Positions 15,252-54,260 of a stretch of DNA of 64,000 nucleotides are shown in pieces. Position 1 is the stretch's first letter. Each line of letters starts with the position of its first letter. The stretch comes from Escherichia coli (GTDB taxonomy: Bacteria; Pseudomonadota; Gammaproteobacteria; Enterobacterales; Enterobacteriaceae). The stretch lies in NCBI RefSeq assembly GCF_003334815.1, contig NZ_QOWO01000006.1. The stretch is one strand, 5' to 3'. Made by a program: the position numbers and the translations under genes. The notes beneath the pieces were generated by a model that worked only from the letters and a program-made list of their open reading frames with translations, had not been told where the DNA came from and searched no databases.

Positions 15252-15285
15252 CAGCCCGACGAACTGTTTCGCCGGGCTGATTTTT
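15252..15285. terminator. Hairpin terminator between convergent perM and focB
   Basis: CAGCCCG-acgaactgtttcgc-CGGGCTG followed by ATTTTT; the T-tract overlaps the focB stop codon. Confidence 0.55.
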
Positions 15286-16133
15286 CAGGGTTCCTGACGT
15301 AAATAAATAGCCCGATAACACATACTCACCAGCACCGCACCGCCGATAATATTACCCAGCATCACCGGGAGCAGATTGGCGGTAATAAAATGGCTGACCG
15401 TCAGTGCCGGAAAATTGTCTGCGCTACTGTGCGCCAGCTGCCAGAAGGGGGGAGGGGCGAAATGGCGAATGGCAATGGCGAACGGAATCACAAACAAATT
15501 GGCGATACAGTGCTCAAAGCCACTGGCGACAAACAGGGTGATGGGCAAAATCATGGCGACGATTTTGTCGCATAACGAACGCCCGCAATAACTCATCCAC
15601 AGCGCCAGGCAAACCATCAGATTGCACATAATGCCGAGGCTGACAGATTCAGTAAATGTATGATGCATTTTGCCCTCGGCGCAGTGTAAAACCGCGACTC
15701 CCCACATCGCGTTTTCACTCATCACCAGCCCGGAAAACCAGATTAACAAACTGAAACAGGCAATACCTGCCAGATTACCGCAGGCCACCAGAAGTGCGTT
15801 AATCAGCCAAGTTCGCCAACTAATAACGCCCCGACTTTTTGCCATCACCGTCATTACCGACGAGGTGAACAGGCTGGTGCCGCAAACCGCCAGCAAAATA
15901 AAGCCGAGTGTAAAGCAAAGGCCGCCCACCAGATGGGTTAATGCCTGTGAAGACGGGGCATCGGCGATAACGGAAAGGTAAAAAGTAAATCCGATCGCCA
16001 TAAACACGCCAGCGGACATCGCCATTAAAAAGACCGACACTTTACTGCGGGCAATTTTATGGGCGGCAATCCGTTCAGCGATTGCCGCTTTTCTGGCGCT
16101 CAACTGCAAGTCGAAAGAGAGTTTGTTTCTCAT
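15285..16133 (-). CDS. focB: Formate channel FocB (FNT family)
   Basis: 282 aa membrane protein; last gene of the hyf cluster by position. Confidence 0.92.
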   Translation of the reverse strand: MRNKLSFDLQLSARKAAIAERIAAHKIARSKVSVFLMAMSAGVFMAIGFTFYLSVIADAPSSQALTHLVGGLCFTLGFILLAVCGTSLFTSSVMTVMAKSRGVISWRTWLINALLVACGNLAGIACFSLLIWFSGLVMSENAMWGVAVLHCAEGKMHHTFTESVSLGIMCNLMVCLALWMSYCGRSLCDKIVAMILPITLFVASGFEHCIANLFVIPFAIAIRHFAPPPFWQLAHSSADNFPALTVSHFITANLLPVMLGNIIGGAVLVSMCYRAIYLRQEP

Positions 16134-16154
16134 GCATACTCCTGCAAAAGCAGA

Positions 16155-18167
16155 TTACAACACCTCGCGAACCGAGATCCCCAGCCGCTGCATTCGTGAC
16201 AGCAGCGTGGTGCGCTTCATCCCTAATCGCGTCGCTGCGCCACGGGGCCCGGCAACAATGCCATTGGTTTCTCGCAATACCTGAACAATGCGCTGACGTT
16301 CTTCTTCGTCATTCTCTGGCGTCGTCGGGTGCAGTAACTGCGCCATTGAACTGCGAAGCGCTGAATCTTCATTTAGCGTCGGCAGTAAACGGCTTTGTCG
16401 GACATTTAGATGTAAATTCAGACTGTTACCACGAGTCAACAGTACCGCCCGCTCAATCACGTTTTCCAGCTCGCGCACGTTGCCCGGCCAATCCCACGAC
16501 ATCAACTGGCGTAGTGCCTCGGTCGGGATGGCGTCAATTGCGCGATTCATATGGCGCGCCATTTTTTGCGTGAAATGTTTTGCTAAAAGAGGGATATCTT
16601 CCGGACGGTCGCGTAGCGGCGGCAATTCCAGTGGGAAGACATTCAGGCGATAAAAGAGATCGCTGCGAAACTGGCGATCTTCAACCATTTGCCACAAATC
16701 ACGGTTGGTGGCGGCAATGACTCTGACATTCACCGGGATCGTTCTACTCCCGCCGAGACGCTCAATCTCCCGCTCCTGCAATACGCGCAGCAGTTTAGGC
16801 TGAAGTTCTAACGGCAGATCGCCAATTTCATCGAGAAACAACGTGCCGCCATCGGCAATTTCAAAACGACCACGATGGGTATTAATCGCACCAGTAAACG
16901 CCCCTTTGTCATGACCGAATAACTCACTTTCCAGAAGACTGGCGGGGATGGCAGCGCAGTTGATTTTGACCAGCGGCTTGTCGCGTCGCGGGCTAAGTTG
17001 ATGGATCGCTCTGGCGATCACCTCTTTGCCAGTTCCGGTTTCACCACAAATCAACACCGTACTGTCGCTCTTCGCCACAATATCTACCTGCTGGAGCAGG
17101 TCTTCCATTGCCTGGCTTTGATAGATAATGTCACCGATGCCCAGATTCGAAAGGAGCTGCTCGCTAAGCTGGTGGTTTTCTTGCTGCAAACTTTCCTGCA
17201 AATCGGTCATGCTACGCCAGGCATCGGCATTGCCAACGGCAATAGCGATGCGATCGGCTATGTGTTGTAGTAGCTGGCAGTTTTCCTCACTAAAGAGAGT
17301 GGAAGAGGTATGCGCCAGCAACAATGCACCCGGTGTATGGTTGCCAAAGGTAAGCGGTATAAGGAGCGCAGATTCGCAGCCGTTAGATGCAAGTAAGAGT
17401 AATAACGGGTCGCGTTGCCAGAGAAACAGATCATCTGCACGGTGCGTCAAGGTCGGTTGTCGGGTTTGTAGCGTTTGTGTCAGCAATACACTTTCGCCAG
17501 GCATACAGCGTGGCAGACACGCACAATGTGAGGCAGAAAGATCGCTGCACCACAGGCTGAACTTCTCGTTCTTTCGATGATCGCCCAGTACCATACTGAC
17601 TGAAGCCAGACCGAAAAAATGATGGATCTCACGAGCGACGTCAGCGATCAGATCGTCGAGATCAAGATGTGACAGCACTGCATTAGTAATATCAACCAGT
17701 ACCCGATGATGATCGCGATCTTTCTCCAGCAAACGCAGCGCCACCTGCTGTTCTTCATCATTGAGCCATGATTGCAGAACCGGGGTGATTATCCGCGCCA
17801 GCCAGTTAAACAGTGTGCAATCCTGGGAAGTAAAACGACTGCCGTGGGTGCGAATAAAGCGTAGCTCCGCCATTCCACTACTGCCGAGAAGGACGGCGTG
17901 ACGCGAATAATCGACCATCTCGCCCTGATACTCTGTTGTTGCCGTCACATCGCTGCCATCATCATGGTAGCGGTAATAGAAGTTGCTTTTGAGAACATGC
18001 AGTTCAATAAGTTGTACCGGGCTGAACGGCGGCGGCAGCGGGATGAAGGCGCGTAATAAAGACGCCTTGCCGTGTTTCTGTGCTAACCGCTCCGCGAGCA
18101 TTCCGTTTACCGCTTCAATTGTTATTCCTTGTGGCGGGGCAAACATCGCCTCGTCTGACATAGCCAT
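16155..18167 (-). CDS. hyfR: Sigma54-dependent transcriptional activator HyfR (FhlA-like)
   Basis: 670 aa from ATG 18167; AAA+ sigma54-interaction domain (GETGTGKE Walker A, GAFTGA motif), C-terminal HTH. Confidence 0.92.
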
Positions 18168-18196
18168 CAACAGTCCTTATTAATGAGAAATCCTTC

Positions 18197-18610
18197 TCAC
18201 GCAATTTTTCTGGCCATCAGATAGATGGCCGGTTCCTGCACAATTTCATCCAACAGATGAATGAATTGAATGCTACGCGCCTGCCACACAGACGTCGCGT
18301 CATCCGCCAGTGGCGCGAATGCCCGGGTCAACAGGGCGGTGTGGCTGGCGTCAATAACAATCTCACCAAAAGTCATCACCCCCAGCATCTTACGTCGGGC
18401 TTGCTCCTCTTCGACCAGTGCAAGCCAATCTTCGTATTCCGTCAGTGGGCAGCGGAAGGCGACATTCAGACAATCAATCACGCCAACGTGATGGCCGATA
18501 GCTAGCGAGTAATACATTACCTGAGAGCTGTGTTCCGGCATCTCGTCGCTACTGGCGACAAACTTTTTTCGCAGCGTCCAGAAAACAATTTCCCCGCACA
18601 CTTCAGTCAT
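18197..18610 (-). CDS. hyfJ: Hydrogenase-4 maturation/assembly factor HyfJ (HycH-like)
   Basis: Track ORF 18197..18673; start taken at internal ATG ([17 protein letters not shown]...) giving 137 aa; overlaps hyfI stop by 8 nt. Confidence 0.85.
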
Positions 18611-19361
18611 GTAACCCCCGGAGTACGCGAAAGAGTTGCTGAACGATACTATTGAGACGTGGATCGTCGGCATCGCGCAACCAGGTGTTAACCCGATTTC
18701 CTGTAGGATCGTCGCTTAAATGGCGCAGGAGCCGATCGCAAATTTCTCGCCCCTGACGATAGCCCGCCAGCCGCCGCGCTTCTCGCTCAATGGCGATACG
18801 CTGTGATGGCGGGATCTGCGGCCACAACGGTTGCATAGTCACCCCGGTGGGATCGCGATAATCCACAGCGTGAATCTTCTGTTGCAGCAAACCGAGCGCC
18901 ACGGCGAAACCGTGAATGGTGGCGGCCGGTGTTGGCGGGCAGCCGGGGATCCAAACATCAATGGGGACAATGGTGTCGCTACCGCCCCAGACGCTGTAGA
19001 GATCGTGGAAAATACCGCCGCCGACACCGCACGCGCCGTAGGAAACACAAATTTTATGATCGGGGGCAGACTCATACGCCCGAAGTGCAGGCATACGCAT
19101 CGCCCGGGTGACTGCGCCAGTAAATAACAAAATATCGGCGTGACGCGGTGATGAAACAACCTTAATGCCAAAACGTTCTGCGTCGAATACTGGTGTAATG
19201 GCAGCAAAAATTTCGATTTCACAGGCGTTGCAGCCGCCGCAATCGACGCGATAAACGTAAGCCGAGCGACGGATATCCTGTAGCAAATGCCGCTTCATCT
19301 TTTGCGTTTGCTCGTCCAGCGTGATGGGCTGGCTGACATGTTGTGTAAGCACTGGACTCAT
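18603..19361 (-). CDS. hyfI: Hydrogenase-4 small subunit HyfI (NuoB-like)
   Basis: 252 aa; NuoB-type Fe-S cysteine pattern ([10 protein letters not shown] ... GCPP). Confidence 0.93.
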
Positions 19362-19903
19362 AGCTGCTCCTTAGCCACCAGCAGTACATCTGTATCGTCG
19401 TTGATCAGCGTCGCGCGTTGTTTGCATTCCGGGCAGACGCTCGCTTGCGCCCACAACATTTCGCGGTTTTGTGGCGCATTTTGTTGCTGTGCTAACAATT
19501 CAGCAGCCAGTGCGATGGTTTTTTGCGGGGCAAACGGGCGTTCGCAACGGCTGCAACGTTGTAGATGGAACGTCGCGCGGGTATAGAGATCGGCTTTATT
19601 GGTGACGGTCAGTTCAAAGTTATTGGTAAGCTGGATGGCTCTGGTCGGGCACACTTCTTCACAACGTCCGCAGTAAATACAACGCCCCAGATAGAGCTGC
19701 CAGGTGCGCGAATTTTGCTGGTCGTCGGTCTGGATAGTCAGCGCATTTGCCGGACAAGCACAGGCGCAGGCACCGCAGGCAATACATTGGCTGGGCATCA
19801 GGTCCGGTTTTCCGCGAAAGCCAGGGCTGACCTCCAGTGGCGCGAAGGGATATTTCACCGTCGCGGTTCCGGCGCGCATAATAGTTTTCAGTAACTTCAG
19901 CAT
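19358..19903 (-). CDS. hyfH: Hydrogenase-4 ferredoxin-type subunit HyfH (2x[4Fe-4S])
   Basis: 181 aa; two CxxCxxCxxxCP ferredoxin motifs ([24 protein letters not shown]). Confidence 0.93.
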
Positions 19904-19912
19904 CTTCTGTCC

Positions 19913-21580
19913 TTACTTCAGCGGCGAACGGTTACGATCAATGCCGTAGCGTTCGATCTCTTTATACGGCACGGTTTTTGACTGGCGCTTGCGCACATCT
20001 ACCAGCGTCACACGGTCGGCACAGGAGTAGCAGGGATCAAGGCTACCGATAATCAGCGGTGCGTCAGAAACGGTATTGCCGCGCAGCATGTAACGCAACA
20101 CCGGCCAGTTGGCGTAGGTGGCGGCACGGCAGCGCCAGCGGAACAATTTTTGGTTATCACCGAGCATGCTCCAGTGCACGTCTTCACCGCGTGGCGCTTC
20201 AACAAAGCCCAGCGCGAATGCGTGAGGTTTATAGCTAAAGCCTTCGGTCAGCAGTGGGGTATCCGGCATGTTGTCGAGGGCAAATTCCAGCATTGCCAGC
20301 GAATCAAACGTCTCTTTGACACGGACCATCACGCGGGAGAAAACATCGCCGCCGGTAAAGGTAAACAGTGTTTTTGGAATATTGCCGTAGTCGGCGTAGG
20401 GGTGATCAAAGCGCAAATCACGGGCGATTTGTCGGTCGAGAATGCCAATGCCCTGAGTGCGTTGTTCCATATTCGGCGTAGCAAGCAGCATCTCTACCAG
20501 CTCCGACACGTCGGCGCGCATCTCGCGCACCAGTTTCAGCGTTTGCAGACGTTGCTCTTTGAGAATATCGCGGCGAACACCACCAATCAGATTCAGACCG
20601 TAGGTTTTACGCGACCCGATCAGCAATTCCGCCATCGTCATCGACTTTTCCCGCACGCGGAAAAATTGCATAAAGCCGGTATCAAAACCAACGAAATGGC
20701 AGGAGAGGCCAAGGTTAAGCAAATGACTGTGTAGCCGTTCGACTTCCAGCAGAATCGAGCGAATAGTATGTGCTCGTTGCGGCACCTCAATCCCCAGTGC
20801 ATTTTCAACCGAATTGGTATAGGCCACACTGTGGGCAAAACCGCAAATCCCACACACGCGGTCCGATAAGAAGGTCACTTCGTTGTAGCCCATCCGCGTT
20901 TCTGCCAGTTTCTCCATGCCGCGATGGACATAAAACAGGCGGTAATCAGCATCGACAATTTGCTCGCCATCCACAAACAAGCGGAAGTGACCCGGTTCAT
21001 CGGAGGTGATATGCAGCGGGCCGACAGGGATCACCCGCGCATCGCTGTTGCCCTCATTGATAAACGGATACGTTTCGGAATCAGTCGTCGGTTCAGGGCG
21101 CAGTCGATAATCCATCGCATCTTTGCGCAGCGGATGCATATCTTCCGGCCAGTCATCGGGCAACACCAGGCGACGCTGATCCGGCAGGCCAACCGGAATC
21201 AGCCCGTACATATCGCGAATTTCTCGCTCGCCCCAGACCGCGGCAGGGACGCGCGGTGTGACTGACGGAAACTCCCGACTGTCGGCATCGACCAGCGCCT
21301 TCACCACAATCCAGCATTTTTCGGCCCCTTCCATTGAAAGGGCATAATAAACCGCGTAATGACCGTTAAGTGTCCGCTCGTCGTTGCCAAACAGGACCGG
21401 AAGCCAGCCATCATGTTGATAATAAAGATACTGTACAACGTCAGGCAGCAGATTGATTTTCACCGTAATGGTGACCTGTTCAGGCGTTTGTCGCTCTTCA
21501 TCCAGCACCGCGCCGGGGAACTGCGTTTTCAGGGCGGCGAGAATCGCTTCGCCACGATTTGACGATGAATTAACGTTCAC
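19913..21580 (-). CDS. hyfG: Hydrogenase-4 [NiFe] large subunit HyfG
   Basis: Track ORF 19913..21625; start assigned to GTG at 21580-21578 giving (M)[17 protein letters not shown]..., 555 aa; [11 protein letters not shown] Ni-binding N-terminal motif and C-terminal DPCYSC. Confidence 0.92.
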
Positions 21581-23150
21581 TGTGTTTCTCCGAAACAGAT
21601 GCGGTGCCTGAAGGCAAAAAATCATGCCAGGTGCTACGTTGTGCAGGCAGATCGTGCGTCCCTGAGAGGACTATAGTGGAAGCGCCCGCCAGGATCCTGA
21701 TGACAGGTTGTGGAATATGCGTTCCCATCGCCAGCATCATGACCAGCAGAATCACCATTGGCGAGGTGGTCAACCAGCCGAGATCACCCCGGTTAACGGC
21801 CTGCGGCGGTTTCGCCATTAACACCCGCGCAGCCATCCGTACCAGGCCCGCCAGCACCAGCGTTAACAGCAATAACAGCAGGACGATAATCAGCAGGTGA
21901 TTACGTGCCAGTCCGGCGGTAATGGTCATAAATTCGCTAAGAAAAATGTTGAAGGGCGGCATCCCTGCCAGCGCCAGCGCACCGCCGCCAAACAGCACGG
22001 CGGTAAATGGCATGATTTTGAGCATCCCACAGACGACGTTGAGATCGCGCGTGCCGTACTTGAGCAGTACATTGCCGGAACCGCAGAACAGCAGCGTTTT
22101 TGCCAGACTGTGGTTTAAGATGTGCAGCAGCGCGGCAAAAATTCCCAGCGGCCCGCCAATGCCTAGCTCCACCGCGACCAGCCCCATGTTCTCCACGCTG
22201 GAGTACGCCAGCAGACGCTTAATGTCCCGCTGTACCAGAATGAAAAATGCCGCCACGGCAACCGACAACATGCCGAAGATGAGCAACAACCGGTTGGGGA
22301 AATCGCTGCCGATGGCTTGGCAAATAATGATGTAATAGCGAATCAGCACCAACAGCGCGCAGTTCAGCAATACGGCGGAGAGCAGGGCGCTGACCGGACT
22401 CGGCGCTTCACTGTGAGCATCCGGCAGCCAGGCGTGCATGGGAAATAGCCCGGTTTTGGTACCAAAGCCAATTAGCAAAAACACAAAGGCCAACAGCATT
22501 AATGTTGGGTCAAGCAAGGACGATTGCTTAAGAACCTCGCTCCAGAATATCGCCATTTCTGCCTGCGGCATAACGCTGGCGGCGTTGGCGTATACCAGCA
22601 CGGTACCGAACAGACCAAAAGCGACACCAACAGTACAAATAATGATGTACTTCCATGCAGCTTCCAGCGATGAACGCTGACCGTAAATGCCTACCAGAAA
22701 CGCCGAGCTTAAGGTGGTGGCTTCGATCGCCGCCCACATCACAATCAGGTTATTGCTGGTAACAACCAGCAGCATGGTGAACAAAAACAGATGGAAGAAA
22801 CCGTAGTAATCGCACAGCGTAACGGGTGAAAGCTCGCCGTGTGCCACTTCATGACGCATGTAGCCAATCGAGTAAATACCGGTGAGAAAGCCAATCACAC
22901 CAAGAATGGCGAGGAACAAACCGCCCAGACCATCAATATGAAGCCACAGTCCCGCAGCGAATATTTCTCCTGCATCAGCGGCAGTTTGGACCACCCAGAG
23001 TGCCAGAATCAGCAGCAGTGTGATCCCTAAGCTATGTAATACGGTCACCGTGCGAGTCGCAGAAAGTCTCCGTTTCCGGCAGGCAAAACAGAGCAGCGAA
23101 AAAAGCAGCGGCGTGAGCAGGAGTAAAGCGAACATCACAGAATAACTCAT
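21570..23150 (-). CDS. hyfF: Hydrogenase-4 membrane subunit HyfF (NuoL/M/N antiporter-like)
   Basis: 526 aa polytopic membrane ORF. Confidence 0.93.
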
Positions 23151-23154
23151 CTCA

Positions 23155-23805
23155 TTATCCCTTCAGCGCGGTCAAGTTGTTCACGTCCAGCGTGCCGTGG
23201 GTACGCCATATTTTTCTTGCCAGTAACACCATCACAATGACGGCGAAGATGGCGTCGGTAGCGATACCTATTTCCACCAGTTCCGGTGCTCGCCAGGCAA
23301 GAAGCGCCAGCACCAGATGGGAGCCGTTTTCCATCAGGCAGTAACCAAAAATTTGCCGCAGGATATTGCGCTGGCTGACAATGCACAGCAGGCCAAGCAG
23401 AAAATGACCTAACGCTACCGCCAGCGCCGGTTTCAGCCCGGTAGCCATCGGTAGCTTCACGGGCTGAACGACAAATGCGCAAAGCAGGACAATTAACGCC
23501 GCGAGCAGTGCCATCATTGCCGGACCGAATAACGCTTTTTCCGGGATGTTCTGGGGAATATTTCGTGCAGCGTAAGTCATGATTAACGGTACCAGCAGCA
23601 CTTTGGTGATAAAGGCGCTGGCGGACCAGATCAGCAGTTGCTCTGCGGCGAACAGGCACGAGAGAGTGGCGAAAATAGACACCAGCACCAGTGACTGGCA
23701 GGCGTAAAATCCGCATGACAGGCGATAGCTTTTGACGCTAATCACAAACAGCGATGTCAGCATCATCAGTCCCGCCAGATTATTTACGATCATAGAACCG
23801 GTCAT
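23155..23805 (-). CDS. hyfE: Hydrogenase-4 membrane subunit HyfE
   Basis: 216 aa hydrophobic ORF. Confidence 0.92.
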
Positions 23806-23816
23806 TCATCATCTCC

Positions 23817-25256
23817 TTACTGCAACCAGGTCGCGGCGATTACGCTGGAAATCAGCGACATCACAATCAGTACAATCAACACCAGGCGCATTGATCCTGG
23901 CAGCGGTGCGGCATCGGCGACGGCCTCGCTCGGTTTGCCAGGCACAACGCGACCAAACCAGCGAATAAACCAGGCGAAACTGGCGACCGATTCAATCATC
24001 AGAAGAATCATGGCGGGCAGCAGGATCCAGTACTCCACTGACAACGCAAAACCGGCAGCAAACAGCGGGAATTTACTGAAGAAGCCGTTGAACGGCGGCA
24101 CGCCGGTAATCGCCAGCGCTGCCACGCAGAAACCCACGCCTGGCAACGGCAGGGTGTGCAATACGCCACGCAGACGCGGCAACAAGCGCGTGCCGCAGCT
24201 GTAACTCAGCGCACCTGCTACAAGGAAAAACAGGCTTTTAGCGAACGCGTGGTTGACGATGTAGGCGATGCTGCCCTCCAGCGCCAGCCGCGAGCCGAAG
24301 ATGGAGAGCGACAAGCCGAAGAACATCCAGCCAAGTTGAGTGATGGTCGACCAGGCTAGCAACCGCTTCATATCCTGCTGTGGCAAATACATCAGAAAGC
24401 CATAAAGAATGGTGACCAGTGCCATGACCATGCCAACGCCGCCAATCACATGCGGGATATTGCCGCCGTCGATAATAGCGCGGGCAAAAATGTAAACGCC
24501 CACTTTCACCATCGATGCGGCGTGGAGATAGGCGCTGATCGGTGTTGGCGCTTCCATTGCGTCCGGTAGCCACGCTTGCATCGGTAGCTGGGCCGATTTC
24601 CCCCACGCGGCAAACAGGATGCCGCCATAAACCAGATAACGTGCGTCGCCGTGTAACTCGCTCATCGCGCTAAGCGCAAACGTTCCGGTCTGCAAAAACA
24701 GCGTGGCGGCGGCAAGATACAACCCCAACGAGCCGATATGAGTGATAAGTAACGCTTTTAGTGCTGAACGCTGCGCTTTATCGCTCTGGTAATAACTGAT
24801 CAACGCCCAGGAGCAGCCGCCTGTAATTTCAAAAAACAACAACTGACCGAGCAGCGTCGAGGAGAGTACCAGTCCCGCCATCGCGCCGATAAACACCAGT
24901 AAAAATGCGTAATAACGATTCGTGCCGTTATGCGGGTGTTCGCGATTTTTATCCGTCAGATAACCCGTGGAGTAGATCGTGACCAGCAAACCGAGAAACA
25001 CCACCACAAACAGAATCAGCGTACTCACGCGATCAATGACCAGGCCAAACAACGCCACATCCCCCACGTTGACCAACGTCAACGTGACGGCAACTTTATC
25101 GGCCTGATAAAACGCGGAGATCAGTGACAACATGCACAGCGTGGTCAGCGCGGCGAACAAAACCCCCCATTCGGCGGCCCGACGTTGTGGCGAAAACGAA
25201 ACGACCAGTGCGCCGATAAAAGGCAGCAATAACGTCGTCAGAGCAAGATTTTCCAT
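23817..25256 (-). CDS. hyfD: Hydrogenase-4 membrane subunit HyfD (NuoL/M/N antiporter-like)
   Basis: 479 aa polytopic membrane ORF. Confidence 0.93.
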   Translation of the reverse strand: MENLALTTLLLPFIGALVVSFSPQRRAAEWGVLFAALTTLCMLSLISAFYQADKVAVTLTLVNVGDVALFGLVIDRVSTLILFVVVFLGLLVTIYSTGYLTDKNREHPHNGTNRYYAFLLVFIGAMAGLVLSSTLLGQLLFFEITGGCSWALISYYQSDKAQRSALKALLITHIGSLGLYLAAATLFLQTGTFALSAMSELHGDARYLVYGGILFAAWGKSAQLPMQAWLPDAMEAPTPISAYLHAASMVKVGVYIFARAIIDGGNIPHVIGGVGMVMALVTILYGFLMYLPQQDMKRLLAWSTITQLGWMFFGLSLSIFGSRLALEGSIAYIVNHAFAKSLFFLVAGALSYSCGTRLLPRLRGVLHTLPLPGVGFCVAALAITGVPPFNGFFSKFPLFAAGFALSVEYWILLPAMILLMIESVASFAWFIRWFGRVVPGKPSEAVADAAPLPGSMRLVLIVLIVMSLISSVIAATWLQ

Positions 25257-25272
25257 ATTCCGTCAGTGCTCC

Positions 25273-26220
25273 TTACAGACCGGTTAACCAGAAGACCCAT
25301 GCAAGCGCAGCAAGGCTGAAGCCAAGCCAGGTCACATGGTGAATGAGTAAAAAACGCCCGCGTGCCAGCGTGTTTTCTGCGATTGAGGCCAGTACAAAAA
25401 TCAGCAAAACCTTGAGCAGCGTAACGACAAGTGAAGTCAGCAGGCAGGCGAGAGAAAGTTCTTGCGCGCGCCCAAAGGGCAGAAACAGGGCCACAAACAG
25501 TGATGCCATCACGACCTGTTTCAGCCCCAGCCCCCATTTCGCTAGCGCCAGCCCGGCACCGGAATATTCGGTCAGCGGGCCTTCCTGTAATTCCTGTTCT
25601 GCTTCAGCAACATCAAAGGGAATTTTTCCCATCTCAATGAAGCAGGCAAAACCACAGGCCAGTAACGCCAGTACGGTGGTTAGCGGCGAGTTCCAGCCCA
25701 TCGCCAGCGTATTGCTGATCATCTCGATATGCGTGGAACCTGCTATCAGCGCCAATACCAGCAGTGAGAGAATAAGCATTGGTTCGACCAGAATGCCGAG
25801 CGTCAACTCGCGACTGGCACCGACTCCCGCAAACGGACTTCCGGTATCCAGCCCGGAAAGAGCAAAGAAAAAACGAAACAGGGCAAGAAGATAGATAAGG
25901 GTGATCAGATCGCCGCCGCCCGCAAAAGGGGAAACGGTAATAAACAGTGGTAAGGCCATCGCCAGCACCAGCATGCTGCTGATTAATACCCACGGCATCA
26001 GGCGGAACATCAGACCTGAAGATGTCGGCGCAACTTCCTGGCGTTTAAACAGTTTGTGGATATCGCGATAATCCTGCCAGATCCCCGGCCCGCGGCGGGA
26101 GTGCATACGCGCGCGTATCTGCCGGGAAATACCCGTAAAAAGTGGGGTTAGCATCAGCAGAATCACGGCCTGTGCTAACGCAAAAATGACCAGATATCCG
26201 TCGCAAAGAGTTTGTCTCAT
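25273..26220 (-). CDS. hyfC: Hydrogenase-4 membrane subunit HyfC (NuoH-like)
   Basis: Track ORF 25273..26241; start taken at ATG 26220 (MRQTLCDGYLVIFALAQ...) giving 315 aa. Confidence 0.9.
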   Translation of the reverse strand: MRQTLCDGYLVIFALAQAVILLMLTPLFTGISRQIRARMHSRRGPGIWQDYRDIHKLFKRQEVAPTSSGLMFRLMPWVLISSMLVLAMALPLFITVSPFAGGGDLITLIYLLALFRFFFALSGLDTGSPFAGVGASRELTLGILVEPMLILSLLVLALIAGSTHIEMISNTLAMGWNSPLTTVLALLACGFACFIEMGKIPFDVAEAEQELQEGPLTEYSGAGLALAKWGLGLKQVVMASLFVALFLPFGRAQELSLACLLTSLVVTLLKVLLIFVLASIAENTLARGRFLLIHHVTWLGFSLAALAWVFWLTGL

Positions 26221-26230
26221 GGTGATTTCC

Positions 26231-28249
26231 TTAGACGGCAATAGCGATTAGCAGCACAACCAGTGCGGCGACCACATACAGGCAATAGAGACGAAAGTCG
26301 CCGCTTTGCAGATGCTGTATTTCTTTGGCCAGCCGTTGGGTGGCGCTCACGATGGGGCGGATCACCCGCTCATCCCAGAAGGGTTCTGTGCTCTGAGCCC
26401 TGGCGGTGACGTGCGCAAGACCTTTATTTAGCCTCAGCGTAGGGTCGAGCTGTTGTCGTAGACGAAATAGCGCAGAAAAGACCACACGCAGCGGCTGCAT
26501 CACGCCATTGCCTGACGGGGCCATCGCATTTTCCCAGCCGTAGCCGCATGCCCAGGCATCTCCTGTGCGACGAAACGCTGCGCGGCGCGAACGACACCAC
26601 AGCCAGTAAAGGCCAGGCAGCAAAGGCATCGCCAGTAGTAACAGCAACAGTAATGAGGGGGTGACCTGTGTATGAAACGTGCCGGGTACAAGTGCTATTC
26701 CGCTGGCGACAGTGGCGGGAGGGGTATTGGTAAACGCATGGGCAATATGCATTATCTTCGGTGCCAGCCAACTGGCACTAAGCGCAATTAATACGCAGAG
26801 TGCCGCGAGCAGTAGCATGGCGACGATCATCGTATTTGGCACTTCCTGTGCCTCTTCAGCGTGTGTACTGCGCGGCGCACCACAGAAAGTAATACCGTAC
26901 ATTTTTACGAAGCACATTACTGCCAGCCCACCAGTGACTGCCAGCATTACCATAGCAATAGGACCCGCAAGTTGTAGCGCTACGGCTTCCACACGACTTA
27001 GTGAGAACAGCGACTGCCAGGTGTACCATTCGCTGATAAAACCATTCAGCGGAGGAATGGCTGATATCGCGAGGCAACCAATCAGGCATGCTGCGGCTGT
27101 CCACGGCATCCGTTTCGCTAGTGCCCCCATTTTTTCCATGTCGTGGGTATGCAAACGCGAAATAATCGCTCCCGCGCCGAGAAATAGCAGCCCTTTGAAC
27201 AGCGCATGGTTGAGCAGATGAAACAGTGCGCCGAGCAGTCCAACCACGGTGAGCAGCGGGTCGTGCAGTGACAGACCGACCATCGCCACACCGACTGCCA
27301 GCAAAATAATGCCGACGTTTTCGACGGTACTCCAGGCCAGCAGCCGTTTGATATCCTGTTCCGCCAGCGCATATAGCACGCCCAGGAGCGCGGAGATTGC
27401 GCCGATCGCCATCACCAGAATGCCCCACCACAGAGGCAAACCCGTTTGCGCCAGCAGATCCATCGCTACTTTCAGGATGCCGAAAATACCTATTTTGACC
27501 ATTACGCCAGACATCAACGCCGAAGCGTGCGATGGTGCGGCAGGGTGAGCGCGCGGCAACCAGCTGTGCAACGGCATCATCCCGGCTTTCGCGCCAAAAC
27601 CGAAAAAGGCCAGCAGGAACACCGCCGACGCCAGCCCCGGAGAAAGTGAAAGCGTGCGGAAACTGGCAAAATCGAGGCTGCCGCTTTCGCGCCCCATCAG
27701 CAAGAAGGCGATCATTATCAGCACCGATCCGGCGTGGGCGATAAAAAAGTAGAGCATGCCAGCGTTGATCGACGTTTTATCCTGCCTGGCAATGACCAGA
27801 AACCAGGAAGACAGCGACATCATTTCAAACAGCACGATGAACCAAAAAGCGTTGTCCATCACCAGCAGGGCAACCATCGATGCGATGAAAATATTCATAA
27901 AGAAGCCCATCGCCGCCGCGCCTTTGCCCTCGTATTCGCGCATATAAGTCAATGAATAGAGAGAACAAACCACCACCAGCAAGGAGATAACCAGCACCAT
28001 AAATGCCGAGAGGCTATCCATTCGCAGGGTTAAATCGGCAAATTCAAAAGGGGTGGCAAAACGGGCGACTAAAGTTACACCAGCATGTAATTGCGTAATT
28101 CCGCTGATGATGCCAATCACGCCGCCCACCAGCGATGTGATGCCGGAAAGCTTAATAGCCAGTCTGTCCAGACCGAGTAAAAACAGCGAAGCCAGACTAG
28201 CAAACAGATAGAGAATCAGCGACCAGGTTAATAATTGCAGGGCATCCAT
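26231..28249 (-). CDS. hyfB: Hydrogenase-4 membrane subunit HyfB (NuoL/M/N antiporter-like)
   Basis: 672 aa polytopic membrane ORF. Confidence 0.93.
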   Translation of the reverse strand: MDALQLLTWSLILYLFASLASLFLLGLDRLAIKLSGITSLVGGVIGIISGITQLHAGVTLVARFATPFEFADLTLRMDSLSAFMVLVISLLVVVCSLYSLTYMREYEGKGAAAMGFFMNIFIASMVALLVMDNAFWFIVLFEMMSLSSWFLVIARQDKTSINAGMLYFFIAHAGSVLIMIAFLLMGRESGSLDFASFRTLSLSPGLASAVFLLAFFGFGAKAGMMPLHSWLPRAHPAAPSHASALMSGVMVKIGIFGILKVAMDLLAQTGLPLWWGILVMAIGAISALLGVLYALAEQDIKRLLAWSTVENVGIILLAVGVAMVGLSLHDPLLTVVGLLGALFHLLNHALFKGLLFLGAGAIISRLHTHDMEKMGALAKRMPWTAAACLIGCLAISAIPPLNGFISEWYTWQSLFSLSRVEAVALQLAGPIAMVMLAVTGGLAVMCFVKMYGITFCGAPRSTHAEEAQEVPNTMIVAMLLLAALCVLIALSASWLAPKIMHIAHAFTNTPPATVASGIALVPGTFHTQVTPSLLLLLLLAMPLLPGLYWLWCRSRRAAFRRTGDAWACGYGWENAMAPSGNGVMQPLRVVFSALFRLRQQLDPTLRLNKGLAHVTARAQSTEPFWDERVIRPIVSATQRLAKEIQHLQSGDFRLYCLYVVAALVVLLIAIAV

Positions 28250-28866
28250 TAGCGTTGCTCCTGAGTGAGGGAAAGGGGATCCTCCCCGCCATTGGCAAAC
28301 CAGCTTGCGGCAAGGCGCTGTTTTTCTTTCATCTGACGTTGCAGGCTATCACCGGTGATCAGCCGTAACGCCTGATTCGGGCAAGCGCGAACGCAGGCCG
28401 GACCTTCTGGCAAGAAATCACACAGGTCGCATTTCACCGCGACGGTCTGGACACCAGGTTCCCAGCGCAGCAAAGCATGTTGTGTTGGCGCGTTTTCTTC
28501 GCCGTCTTTGAGTGAGCCTTCAGCCTGAAAAACATATTGCGCATGGGCATTCACCGGACGGCTTCCTGAAGCGCTGATTGCGCCAAATGGGCAGACCACG
28601 GCGCAAAGCTTGCAGCCAATACAGAGGCTTTCGTTGAGTTGGATCGCATCATCCCTCTGAGAGATGGCATTGACCGGGCAGACCTGCAGGCAAGGGGCTT
28701 CCTCACAGTGATGACACACGACAGGGGCAGTGATTGTTGACGTCTTCGCCAGGGCCAGGCGCGGGTGTTGCTGTAAACCTTGCGTTTTATGCACGTCCGA
28801 ACAGGCAGCGAGACAGGTATTACATCCTGTACACCACAGTGGTTCGGCCACCACAAAGCGGTTCAT
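28249..28866 (-). CDS. hyfA: Hydrogenase-4 Fe-S subunit HyfA (4x[4Fe-4S] ferredoxin)
   Basis: Track ORF 28249..28905; start taken at ATG 28866 (MNRFVVAEPLWCTGCNTCLAACS...) giving 205 aa; AAGGAG 8 nt upstream. Confidence 0.9.
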   Translation of the reverse strand: MNRFVVAEPLWCTGCNTCLAACSDVHKTQGLQQHPRLALAKTSTITAPVVCHHCEEAPCLQVCPVNAISQRDDAIQLNESLCIGCKLCAVVCPFGAISASGSRPVNAHAQYVFQAEGSLKDGEENAPTQHALLRWEPGVQTVAVKCDLCDFLPEGPACVRACPNQALRLITGDSLQRQMKEKQRLAASWFANGGEDPLSLTQEQR

Positions 28867-28906
28867 GTCGGCTCCTTGAAAATGATATGAAACATTGCAT
28901 TTCATA

Positions 28907-28923
28907 TTGCATAAAGGATGCCA
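28907..28923 (-). promoter_or_regulatory. Sigma54 (-24/-12) promoter of the hyf operon
   Basis: Minus strand reads TGGCAT-CCTTT-ATGCA (consensus TGGCAC-N5-TTGCA; GG and GC correctly spaced, 2 mismatches), 41-57 nt upstream of the hyfA ATG; HyfR (sigma54 activator) is encoded in the same cluster. Confidence 0.6.
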
Positions 28924-29048
28924 TTCTGATTAACTCAATATATTCAATAAGTTATGTATTAACTGGATTCTGAACGGTACAAAAATGATGGTCATTAACG
29001 TTCAGCAAAAAATGGATTCGACACCCGTGTCGCAGGGGAAAGCGAGAA

Positions 29049-29064
29049 TGTGATCTTGATCACG
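29049..29064. promoter_or_regulatory. CRP-like palindrome TGTGATC-TT-GATCACg upstream of hyf promoter
   Basis: TGTGA-N6-TCAC arrangement, near-perfect dyad, ~185 bp upstream of hyfA ATG in the bcp-hyfA intergenic region. Confidence 0.4.
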
Positions 29065-29118
29065 AGAAGTGAGGTATGCTGGCCGCAAGCGCAGCCAGCA
29101 CGGAATGGAGCAAAGTAA

Positions 29119-29589
29119 TCAGGCGTGTTCTTTCAGCCAGTTCAGCACAACGTCGTGGTGATTGCTGGTTTTGAAATCGTCAAAGACATGTTCGATTTTG
29201 CCATCAGCGTCAATCAGGAAGCTGATGCGATGAATGCCATCGTAGGTTTTGCCCATGAAGGACTTTTCACCCCAGACGCCGAATTGTTCGCACACCTGGT
29301 GGTCCTCATCAGACAGGAGCGTAAAGTTAAGCAGCTCTTTTTCCGCAAAACGGGAGAGTTTTTCGGGTTTATCGGTGCTGATACCCAGCACATCAACGCC
29401 CGCTTTTTTCAACTCATCCATGTTATCGCGTAAGCCGCAGGCCTGTACGGTACAGCCGGGGGTCATGGCTTTCGGGTAGAAATAAACCAGAACACGCTGT
29501 CCCTGGAAGTCGGTCAAATTAACTTGTTCTCCGTCTTGATCCGGCAAGCTAAATTTCGGTGCGATATCACCGGCTTTCAGTGGATTCAT
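29119..29589 (-). CDS. bcp: Thiol peroxidase Bcp (peroxiredoxin)
   Basis: 156 aa, MNPLKAGDIAPKFSLPDQDGEQVNL...FYPKAMTPGCTVQAC (peroxidatic Cys). Confidence 0.95.
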   Translation of the reverse strand: MNPLKAGDIAPKFSLPDQDGEQVNLTDFQGQRVLVYFYPKAMTPGCTVQACGLRDNMDELKKAGVDVLGISTDKPEKLSRFAEKELLNFTLLSDEDHQVCEQFGVWGEKSFMGKTYDGIHRISFLIDADGKIEHVFDDFKTSNHHDVVLNWLKEHA

Positions 29590-30161
29590 TACTTAACTCC
29601 ATCCTGTTCATCATGTTGGGAATAATTGACGACGTTAATACTGCCTTGTGCATTGAGTTCTGTACATAGGGCTTTGAACGCTTGCTCAATATTTGCTGCG
29701 TCCGCAGATGCGGGGCTGTGGGCGGTTATCTGAATATGCAACTGCGCAGCCCGTTCATTTTCAGCAGGTTGCGTGCGCGACACCAGCTCCGCAATGTTCA
29801 TATGATGCGCGTCGAAAAGTGCTGTGAAGCGTTCAATTAAATGCGGGGAGTCTGCCACATCGACCTGAACCCAGACAGATGCTGGCATTGGCGGACGCGG
29901 ACGCGCCGTCGTGCGCTTCATCACGATTAAAAGATCCAGTTCGGCACCTTTCAACGGTAACGTTGATTCAATCAGAGTAATGGCATTCCATGAACCGGAA
30001 AGCAGCATAATAAACGTGAACTCTTCTCCCAGCATCGCCAGGCGACTGTCTTCAATATTACAGCCGCAACTACTGACATGACGGGTGATGGTGTTCACAA
30101 TTCCAGGGCGATCGGCACCCAACGCAGTGATCACCAGATAATGTTGCGATGACAGTGTCAA
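29589..30161 (-). CDS. gcvR: Glycine cleavage system transcriptional repressor GcvR; TTG start
   Basis: Track ORF 29589..30227; start assigned to TTG at 30161-30159 giving (M)TLSSQHYLVITALGADRPGIVN..., 190 aa; stop TAA overlaps bcp ATG as TAATG. Confidence 0.85.
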   Translation of the reverse strand: MTLSSQHYLVITALGADRPGIVNTITRHVSSCGCNIEDSRLAMLGEEFTFIMLLSGSWNAITLIESTLPLKGAELDLLIVMKRTTARPRPPMPASVWVQVDVADSPHLIERFTALFDAHHMNIAELVSRTQPAENERAAQLHIQITAHSPASADAANIEQAFKALCTELNAQGSINVVNYSQHDEQDGVK

Positions 30162-54010: not shown

Positions 54011-54260
54011 CAGTTTAGCTGCAATATATTAGTAAAGCTTATTACTGAGTTTGCGAATAATAAAAAAAAGCAGTCTATATAATATCTCGATATTATTTTA
54101 TTTATATTCATGCGTTGCATATGAAAGTTTATGCACCACAGCGAATATCTCTCCATTCTTAGTGATCTACCTCACCTTTTAAACGCGCTTGCCGAATTTT
54201 GTTATTTACTCTGACGAAAAATTGTCACGATACACGAAAGTTTTTCACAGGCGGCGACTC

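Follow-up and report, generated by a model that had tools for sequence, protein, structure and literature searches.

A cAMP-CRP site far upstream of the sigma54 promoter of the hydrogenase-4 (hyf) operon in Escherichia coli

The bcp-hyfA region

The stretch of DNA analysed here (64,000 nucleotides of Escherichia coli, RefSeq assembly GCF_003334815.1, contig NZ_QOWO01000006.1; hereafter the window) contains the gcvR-bcp-hyfA-hyfB region on its reverse strand. In thousands of E. coli genomes, the RefSeq labels that flank the identical sequence are hydrogenase 4 subunit HyfA and bcp. The following features were located in and around the spacer between these two genes (window coordinates; centres are given relative to the hyfA transcription start):

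28249..28866, minus strand: hyfA coding sequence, the first gene of the regulated operon (205 aa, MNRFVV..., ATG at 28866), with hyfB next
28908..28923, minus strand: sigma54 -24/-12 element of hyfA, TGGCATCCTTTATGCA, kept in orthologues
28979..28994, minus strand: second conserved block, TGACCATCATTTTTGT, recognised by its conservation, centre at -90.5
29019..29032, minus strand: inverted repeat CGACACGGGTGTCG, a probable FhlA/HyfR upstream activating sequence (UAS), centre at -129.5, 31 bp promoter-proximal to the centre of the CRP site
29049..29064, minus strand: very probable cAMP-CRP site of the hyf promoter, CGTGATCAAGATCACA on the hyf strand, centre at -160.5
29076..29101, minus strand: bcp 3' hairpin with an 11-bp stem and a GCUU loop (-20.9 kcal/mol, z = -4.47, 0 of 200 shuffled sequences as stable)
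29119..29589, minus strand: bcp coding sequence (thiol peroxidase), the upstream neighbour, from the open reading frame and the RefSeq annotation

The start of hyfA transcription is placed 30 nt ahead of the ATG, at about 28896; this start is supported by the independent reproduction of the centre at -160.5 that RegulonDB gives for the CRP site. The bcp>/>hyfA spacer also holds a strong SELEX peak of the RpoN holoenzyme, which reached 92% with the holoenzyme alone and was the highest peak with NtrC (PMC8743547).

The palindrome TGTGATCTTGATCACG was read directly from the plus strand at 29049..29064. The first-pass annotation, made from the letters of the window, had described it as near-perfect. 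Of its 16 bases, 12 form a perfect dyad (GTGATC / GATCAC), and the outer pair (T/G) and the central TT are asymmetric. In the frame of a CRP site it reads TGTGA-N6-TCACg, with 9 of 10 core positions matched. Its centre (29056.5) is 135 bp from the GG of the -24 element and 147.5 bp from the C of the -12 element, in line with the distance of about 140 bp to the sigma54 element given earlier; the end of bcp had likewise been placed correctly at 29119 (minus strand, stop codon 29119-29121). Within the CRP box, the Dam methylation sequence GATC occurs twice, at 29052-29055 and at 29058-29061, with a spacing of 6 bp. The half-site GATC is present in the boxes of E. coli and C. amalonaticus, and the two sites are not both kept in the other orthologues.

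Read from bcp towards hyfA, the conserved elements follow each other in the order bcp hairpin, CRP box (-160.5), CGACAC-N3-TGYCG (-129.5), TGACCATCAYTTTTGT (-90.5), an AT-rich stretch, the sigma54 box, and the Shine-Dalgarno sequence with the ATG. The CGACAC-N3-TGYCG block is common to all seven loci compared (7/7), and in these its distance from the CRP box is fixed at 31.0 bp, while the 16 nt between the two are not conserved. Because the K-12 hycA-hypA spacer, where FhlA acts, is built up of TGTCG/CGACA repeats, the block is, judged by its sequence, most likely the HyfR/FhlA enhancer. The palindrome itself contains no element of the types that occur in the activator regions of hyc/hyp and fdhF (CGACA/TGTCG or CGTCA/TGACG); one such element is found at 29019-29032, at a distance of 31 bp. 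CRP, moreover, lacks an AAA+ domain. On these two grounds the palindrome is probably accessory to the enhancer rather than the enhancer itself. Its earlier description as an enhancer-type input is only loosely apt: CRP is no sigma54 enhancer-binding ATPase, and the role of true enhancer most likely falls to the neighbouring CGACA/TGTCG block.

The inverted repeat CGACACGGGTGTCG, which a scan had flagged as terminator-like, was rejected as a terminator: it folds at -4.9 kcal/mol, 129 of 200 shuffled sequences fold equally well, and the DNA is kept in Citrobacter and Kosakonia although the pairing of the stem is lost there (TGCCG). At the -90.5 block, 15 of 16 positions (TGACCATCAYTTTTGT) are invariant across E. 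coli, Citrobacter and Kosakonia, and the block does not vary within E. coli; it may be a second activator element. A partial resemblance was also seen between this block and CGACATCAT of the hyc/hyp spacer (FhlA region).

CRP binding and conservation of the palindrome

The bare CRP core pattern with at most one mismatch occurs four times in the window (1.84 expected), which is not significant alone; a weight-matrix test was therefore used. The matrix was derived from the CRP ChIP-seq study of ETEC H10407 (PMC4287617), whose Table 1 supplied 106 site sequences; the hyfA entry was omitted. The CRP-like character ascribed to the palindrome on first reading was borne out by the scan: with 19.0 bits it ranked first among the 63,985 positions of the window, 4.7 bits over the second-best position, and exceeded 97% of the ChIP-bound training sites. 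In random first-order Markov sequence, 0.0067 matches with at least this score are expected per 64 kb. The next matches, at 23731-23746, 10785-10800, 54161-54176 and 30084-30099 (14.3, 14.0, 13.8 and 13.2 bits, respectively), score at about the median of the ChIP-bound sites; of these four, the first falls within the hyf operon and the last within the 5' portion of gcvR.

The identical sequence is listed in RegulonDB as a CRP activator site of hyfABCDEFGHIJR-focB with its centre at -160.5. The RegulonDB/EcoCyc site of hyfAp and the palindrome share the 16-mer, the flanks, the position and the operon, and the sole contrast is that the window presents the region on the reverse strand. Genomic SELEX recovered hyfA among the known cAMP-CRP targets (Shimada et al. 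2011; PMC3105977), and the SELEX-chip data, obtained by binding in vitro, give TGTGATCTTGATCACG for the bcp>/>hyfA spacer (Table S3; PMC3105977). Binding in vivo was reported for ETEC H10407, where a high-confidence CRP ChIP-seq peak (2810983) with the sequence CGTGATCAAGATCACA was assigned to hyfA (Haycocks et al. 2015; PMC4287617).

Variation within the species was drawn from the E. coli genome collection, as the species-level scan gave no Escherichia loci. The E. coli alleles that diverge most in the sample (95.9-97.4% identity over 266 nt) are all identical in a 22-bp stretch around the CRP box, with substitutions directly to either side of this stretch; the sigma54 box, the CGACA block and the TGACCATCA block do not vary among them either. 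The full bcp-hyfA spacer is present in 4,298 of 5,426 complete E. coli genomes, and a 44-mer search of all 4,298 genomes yielded identity classes consistent with those flanking variants.

Outside E. coli, only six bcp-linked hyfA loci were found (four in Citrobacter and two in Kosakonia), and exactly these six have a strong CRP box, which scores 15.8-18.7 bits and is positioned at -186 to -191 relative to the ATG. Over the 500 bp that precede hyfA, no CRP box was found in Morganella, Providencia, Dickeya, Pectobacterium, Serratia and other distant hyf-type operons; with neither a CRP box nor a bcp neighbour, these operons were left out of the footprinting. In the alignment of E. coli, Citrobacter and Kosakonia, 7 of the 8 core half-site positions are invariant, compared with 1 of 6 positions in the spacer of the box and 72 of 241 positions in the intergenic region. 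This is the footprint of a dimer site, with both half-sites kept, the spacer free to vary and the distance from hyfA the same.

RegulonDB, SELEX-chip, ChIP-seq, matrix score and conservation thus agree on a far-upstream input of the CRP class to the sigma54 promoter of hyf, through which catabolite control is exerted, as the first-pass annotation had suggested. The palindrome is almost certainly the cAMP-CRP operator of the hydrogenase-4 (hyf) operon. The site explains the tie of hydrogenase-4 expression to carbon status; it is already catalogued in the databases, so that the finding is correct but not new and adds no new biology.

Action of CRP at the hyf promoter

CRP-cAMP is reportedly required for optimal HyfR-driven expression of hyf-lacZ. 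A direct positive role in hyf transcription is likely for CRP at the palindrome, and the explanation as a whole, a CRP operator that activates hyf, with a tentative co-activator step, is held with high confidence. In the absence of glucose, with cAMP at a high level, a CRP dimer would bind TGTGA-N6-TCACg at -160.5 and raise hyf transcription, and catabolite control would be added to the formate, low-pH and anaerobic control that acts through the enhancer-binding ATPases HyfR and FhlA. The anatomy of the region suggests that opening of the sigma54 promoter would be beyond CRP alone. From its position beyond the CGACAC-N3-TGYCG block, exactly three helical turns (31 bp) further from the promoter, CRP could serve as a stereospecific co-activator which, by bending the DNA, by direct contact or by both, would stabilise the assembly of the activator on the enhancer; the activator assembly would then loop across the AT-rich stretch to the sigma54 holoenzyme at -24/-12. 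The AT-rich stretch overlaps a published IHF-enriched region.

That CRP stabilises the HyfR/FhlA assembly at hyf as a stereospecific co-activator is a plausible but tentative proposal, drawn from the arrangement of the elements. It is the most economical model for a protein that is without an AAA+ motor and is positioned distal to the enhancer. The stronger proposal, that CRP forms a dedicated, helix-face-specific complex with HyfR/FhlA and acts as a positive co-activator of sigma54 transcription, is rather unlikely; it is kept as a possibility because the 31 bp spacing is maintained across three genera while the intervening DNA is unconserved, and because the order of elements at fdhF is similar. 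We know of no dissection of a co-activation mechanism of CRP with HyfR/FhlA. Against the model, CRP is bound on the far side of the enhancer as seen from the promoter, and from there its bend cannot help looping in the way that IHF does. Wild-type K-12 hardly expresses hyf, which makes the physiological weight of the CRP site uncertain.

For many CRP sites bound in ChIP, no regulatory effect can be measured, and CRP might also be bound at the palindrome with an effect on hyf that is indirect or neutral, acting via the supply of formate, via the activator genes, or mainly by countering nucleoid proteins such as Fis or H-NS in place of cooperation with HyfR/FhlA. Such an effect would fit the usually inhibitory action of CRP at sigma54 promoters and the enrichment of Fis and IHF that overlaps the palindrome (Myers 2013, Table S6; PMC3688515), and we found no mutation of the CRP box itself in the accessible literature. 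It is nonetheless unlikely: the half-sites are conserved while the spacer is variable, the strict distance of 31 bp to the neighbouring block in three genera argues for a position-specific function, and the site is curated in RegulonDB as that of an activator.

The arrangement proposed for direct activation of hyf by CRP has a parallel at fdhF (formate dehydrogenase-H), which is sigma54/FhlA-dependent and shows the same order of a CRP box, about three helical turns, a UAS and a sigma54 promoter. The fdhF box, CGTGATGGCTGTCACG, is bound by CRP in ETEC according to ChIP-seq (PMC4287617). In the K-12 upstream region (minus strand; 199-214 of the reverse-complemented locus) it is situated 33 bp distal to the UAS palindrome GTCAAAACTGAC, compared with 31 bp at hyf, and 125.5 bp from the C of the -12 element, compared with 147.5 bp at hyf. 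The fdhF box is weaker (13.3 bits) than that of hyf (19.0 bits), and the UAS elements are CGTCA/TGACG at fdhF but CGACA/TGTCG at hyf. No CRP box was found in the hycA-hypA spacer, where the best score was 5.3 bits.

At glnAp2, dctA and Pu, as at hyf, cAMP-CRP modulates an enhancer-dependent sigma54 promoter and links it to carbon status. CRP is inhibitory at these three promoters, whereas the hyf site is curated as activating; activation at hyf is thus atypical. In the inhibitory cases, CRP acts near the core promoter (at glnAp2, for example, AR1 and the alpha-CTD recruit it to -51.5) or does so in the absence of any strong site; unlike at glnAp2, dctA and Pu, the CRP site of hyf is near-consensus, far upstream and distal to the enhancer. 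If co-activation is the true mechanism, CRP would be positive at the sigma54 promoter of hyf, in contrast to its inhibitory action at glnAp2, dctA and Pu. The fixed spacing of 31 bp together with the parallel at fdhF provides a handle for testing how CRP might help a sigma54 promoter from a position distal to the enhancer.

FNR, sigma70 and bcp as alternative partners

CRP sites (GTGA) and FNR sites (TTGA) are distinguished by a single position, which is G in the former and T in the latter. At this discriminating position, the palindrome has a G in place of the T in both half-sites (GTGAT...ATCAC), and these are its only two mismatches to TTGAT-N4-ATCAA, with which it agrees at 8 of 10 positions. 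It is very improbable that the palindrome is a site for FNR, or for both CRP and FNR, from which the anaerobic induction of hyf arises, an input that the first-pass annotation had also envisaged. The 14-mer GTGATCAAGATCAC does exceed the permissive threshold of the FNR matrix (PatSer 13.04), and earlier evidence for FNR regulation of hyfA is mentioned in the same study, yet the entry (2599026, GTGATCAAGATCAC, hyfA) is marked as not at an FNR ChIP-seq peak (Myers 2013, Table S6; PMC3688515). In the orthologues, moreover, the promoter-proximal half-site is always TCACA and never TCAA, and the protein found on the palindrome both in vitro and in vivo is CRP.

A perfect FNR consensus, TTGATATATATCAA, is present elsewhere in the window, at 988-1001, about 130 bp upstream of a 747-aa GGDEF/EAL-type open reading frame (1129-3372, YfgF/PdeF-like) and between this frame and a divergent one of 63 aa (586-777). 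This site is already known (2627088, yfgF/yfgG) and is bound in FNR ChIP-seq (Myers 2013, Table S6; PMC3688515). It resembles the palindrome in protein superfamily, dyad architecture and overlapping consensus but differs in being bound by FNR, whereas the palindrome lacks the discriminating T and has no recorded FNR peak. An FNR-like box inside the hyf operon, TTGACCAACGTCAA at 25069-25082, corresponds to the Table S6 entry 2603007 'within hyfD', which is predicted and has no FNR ChIP-seq peak (PMC3688515).

It is even less probable that the CRP box belongs to an overlooked sigma70 promoter of class I at a distance of about 70 bp, directed towards hyfA or antisense into bcp. Hexamers that match a -10 element at four of six positions do occur near the -71.5 distance (GTTAAT towards hyfA and AGTAAT towards bcp), but no match was found at the -41.5 or -61.5 distances, and a consensus scan of 28700-29300 gave no sigma70 promoter. 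The hexamer GTTAAT is not conserved in three of the four Citrobacter loci or in Kosakonia (GGTATT, ACGCTG), while the box is kept. There is also no Rfam RNA in the region; the Rfam scan of 28700-29300 returned only a sub-threshold match to PhrS, which falls inside bcp.

The assignment of the palindrome to the CRP control of hyf also agrees with the genomes that lack the operon. Of the 5,426 complete E. coli genomes, 1,128 (about 21%) match only the first 56-61 nt of the spacer query, and hyf is absent from them. In two hyf-less genomes that were examined (one of them ST131), bcp is directly followed by yfgO; homology to the window extends across the bcp hairpin as far as the outer edge of the CRP box and is picked up again at position 15255 beside yfgO. 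Because the homology to hyf-less strains stops at the edge of the CRP box, the palindrome is the outermost element of the hyf module and not part of bcp. That it is a bcp 3' element, either a terminator hairpin or the bcp-proximal regulatory site considered earlier, can be dismissed with near certainty: it is palindromic and located 55 bp past the bcp stop codon, but its RNA folds at only -3.9 kcal/mol (34 of 200 shuffled sequences as good) with no U tract after it, the strong hairpin at 29076-29101 already accounts for the 3' end of bcp, and hyf-less strains retain bcp and this hairpin but not the palindrome.

The segment absent from the hyf-less genomes (window 15256-29063) comprises the whole of hyf-focB; in the two examined, its other junction is 8 nt past the stop codon of yfgO. 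At the hyf-less junction, about 31 nt match neither flank (1508-1604 region of the two loci). The Citrobacter hairpin at the 3' end of bcp has a clear T tract after it and forms a canonical intrinsic terminator (at about 1235-1290 of the loci). The E. coli hairpin at 29076-29101 is without a T tract, and for this reason bcp transcripts of E. coli might read through towards the hyf control region.
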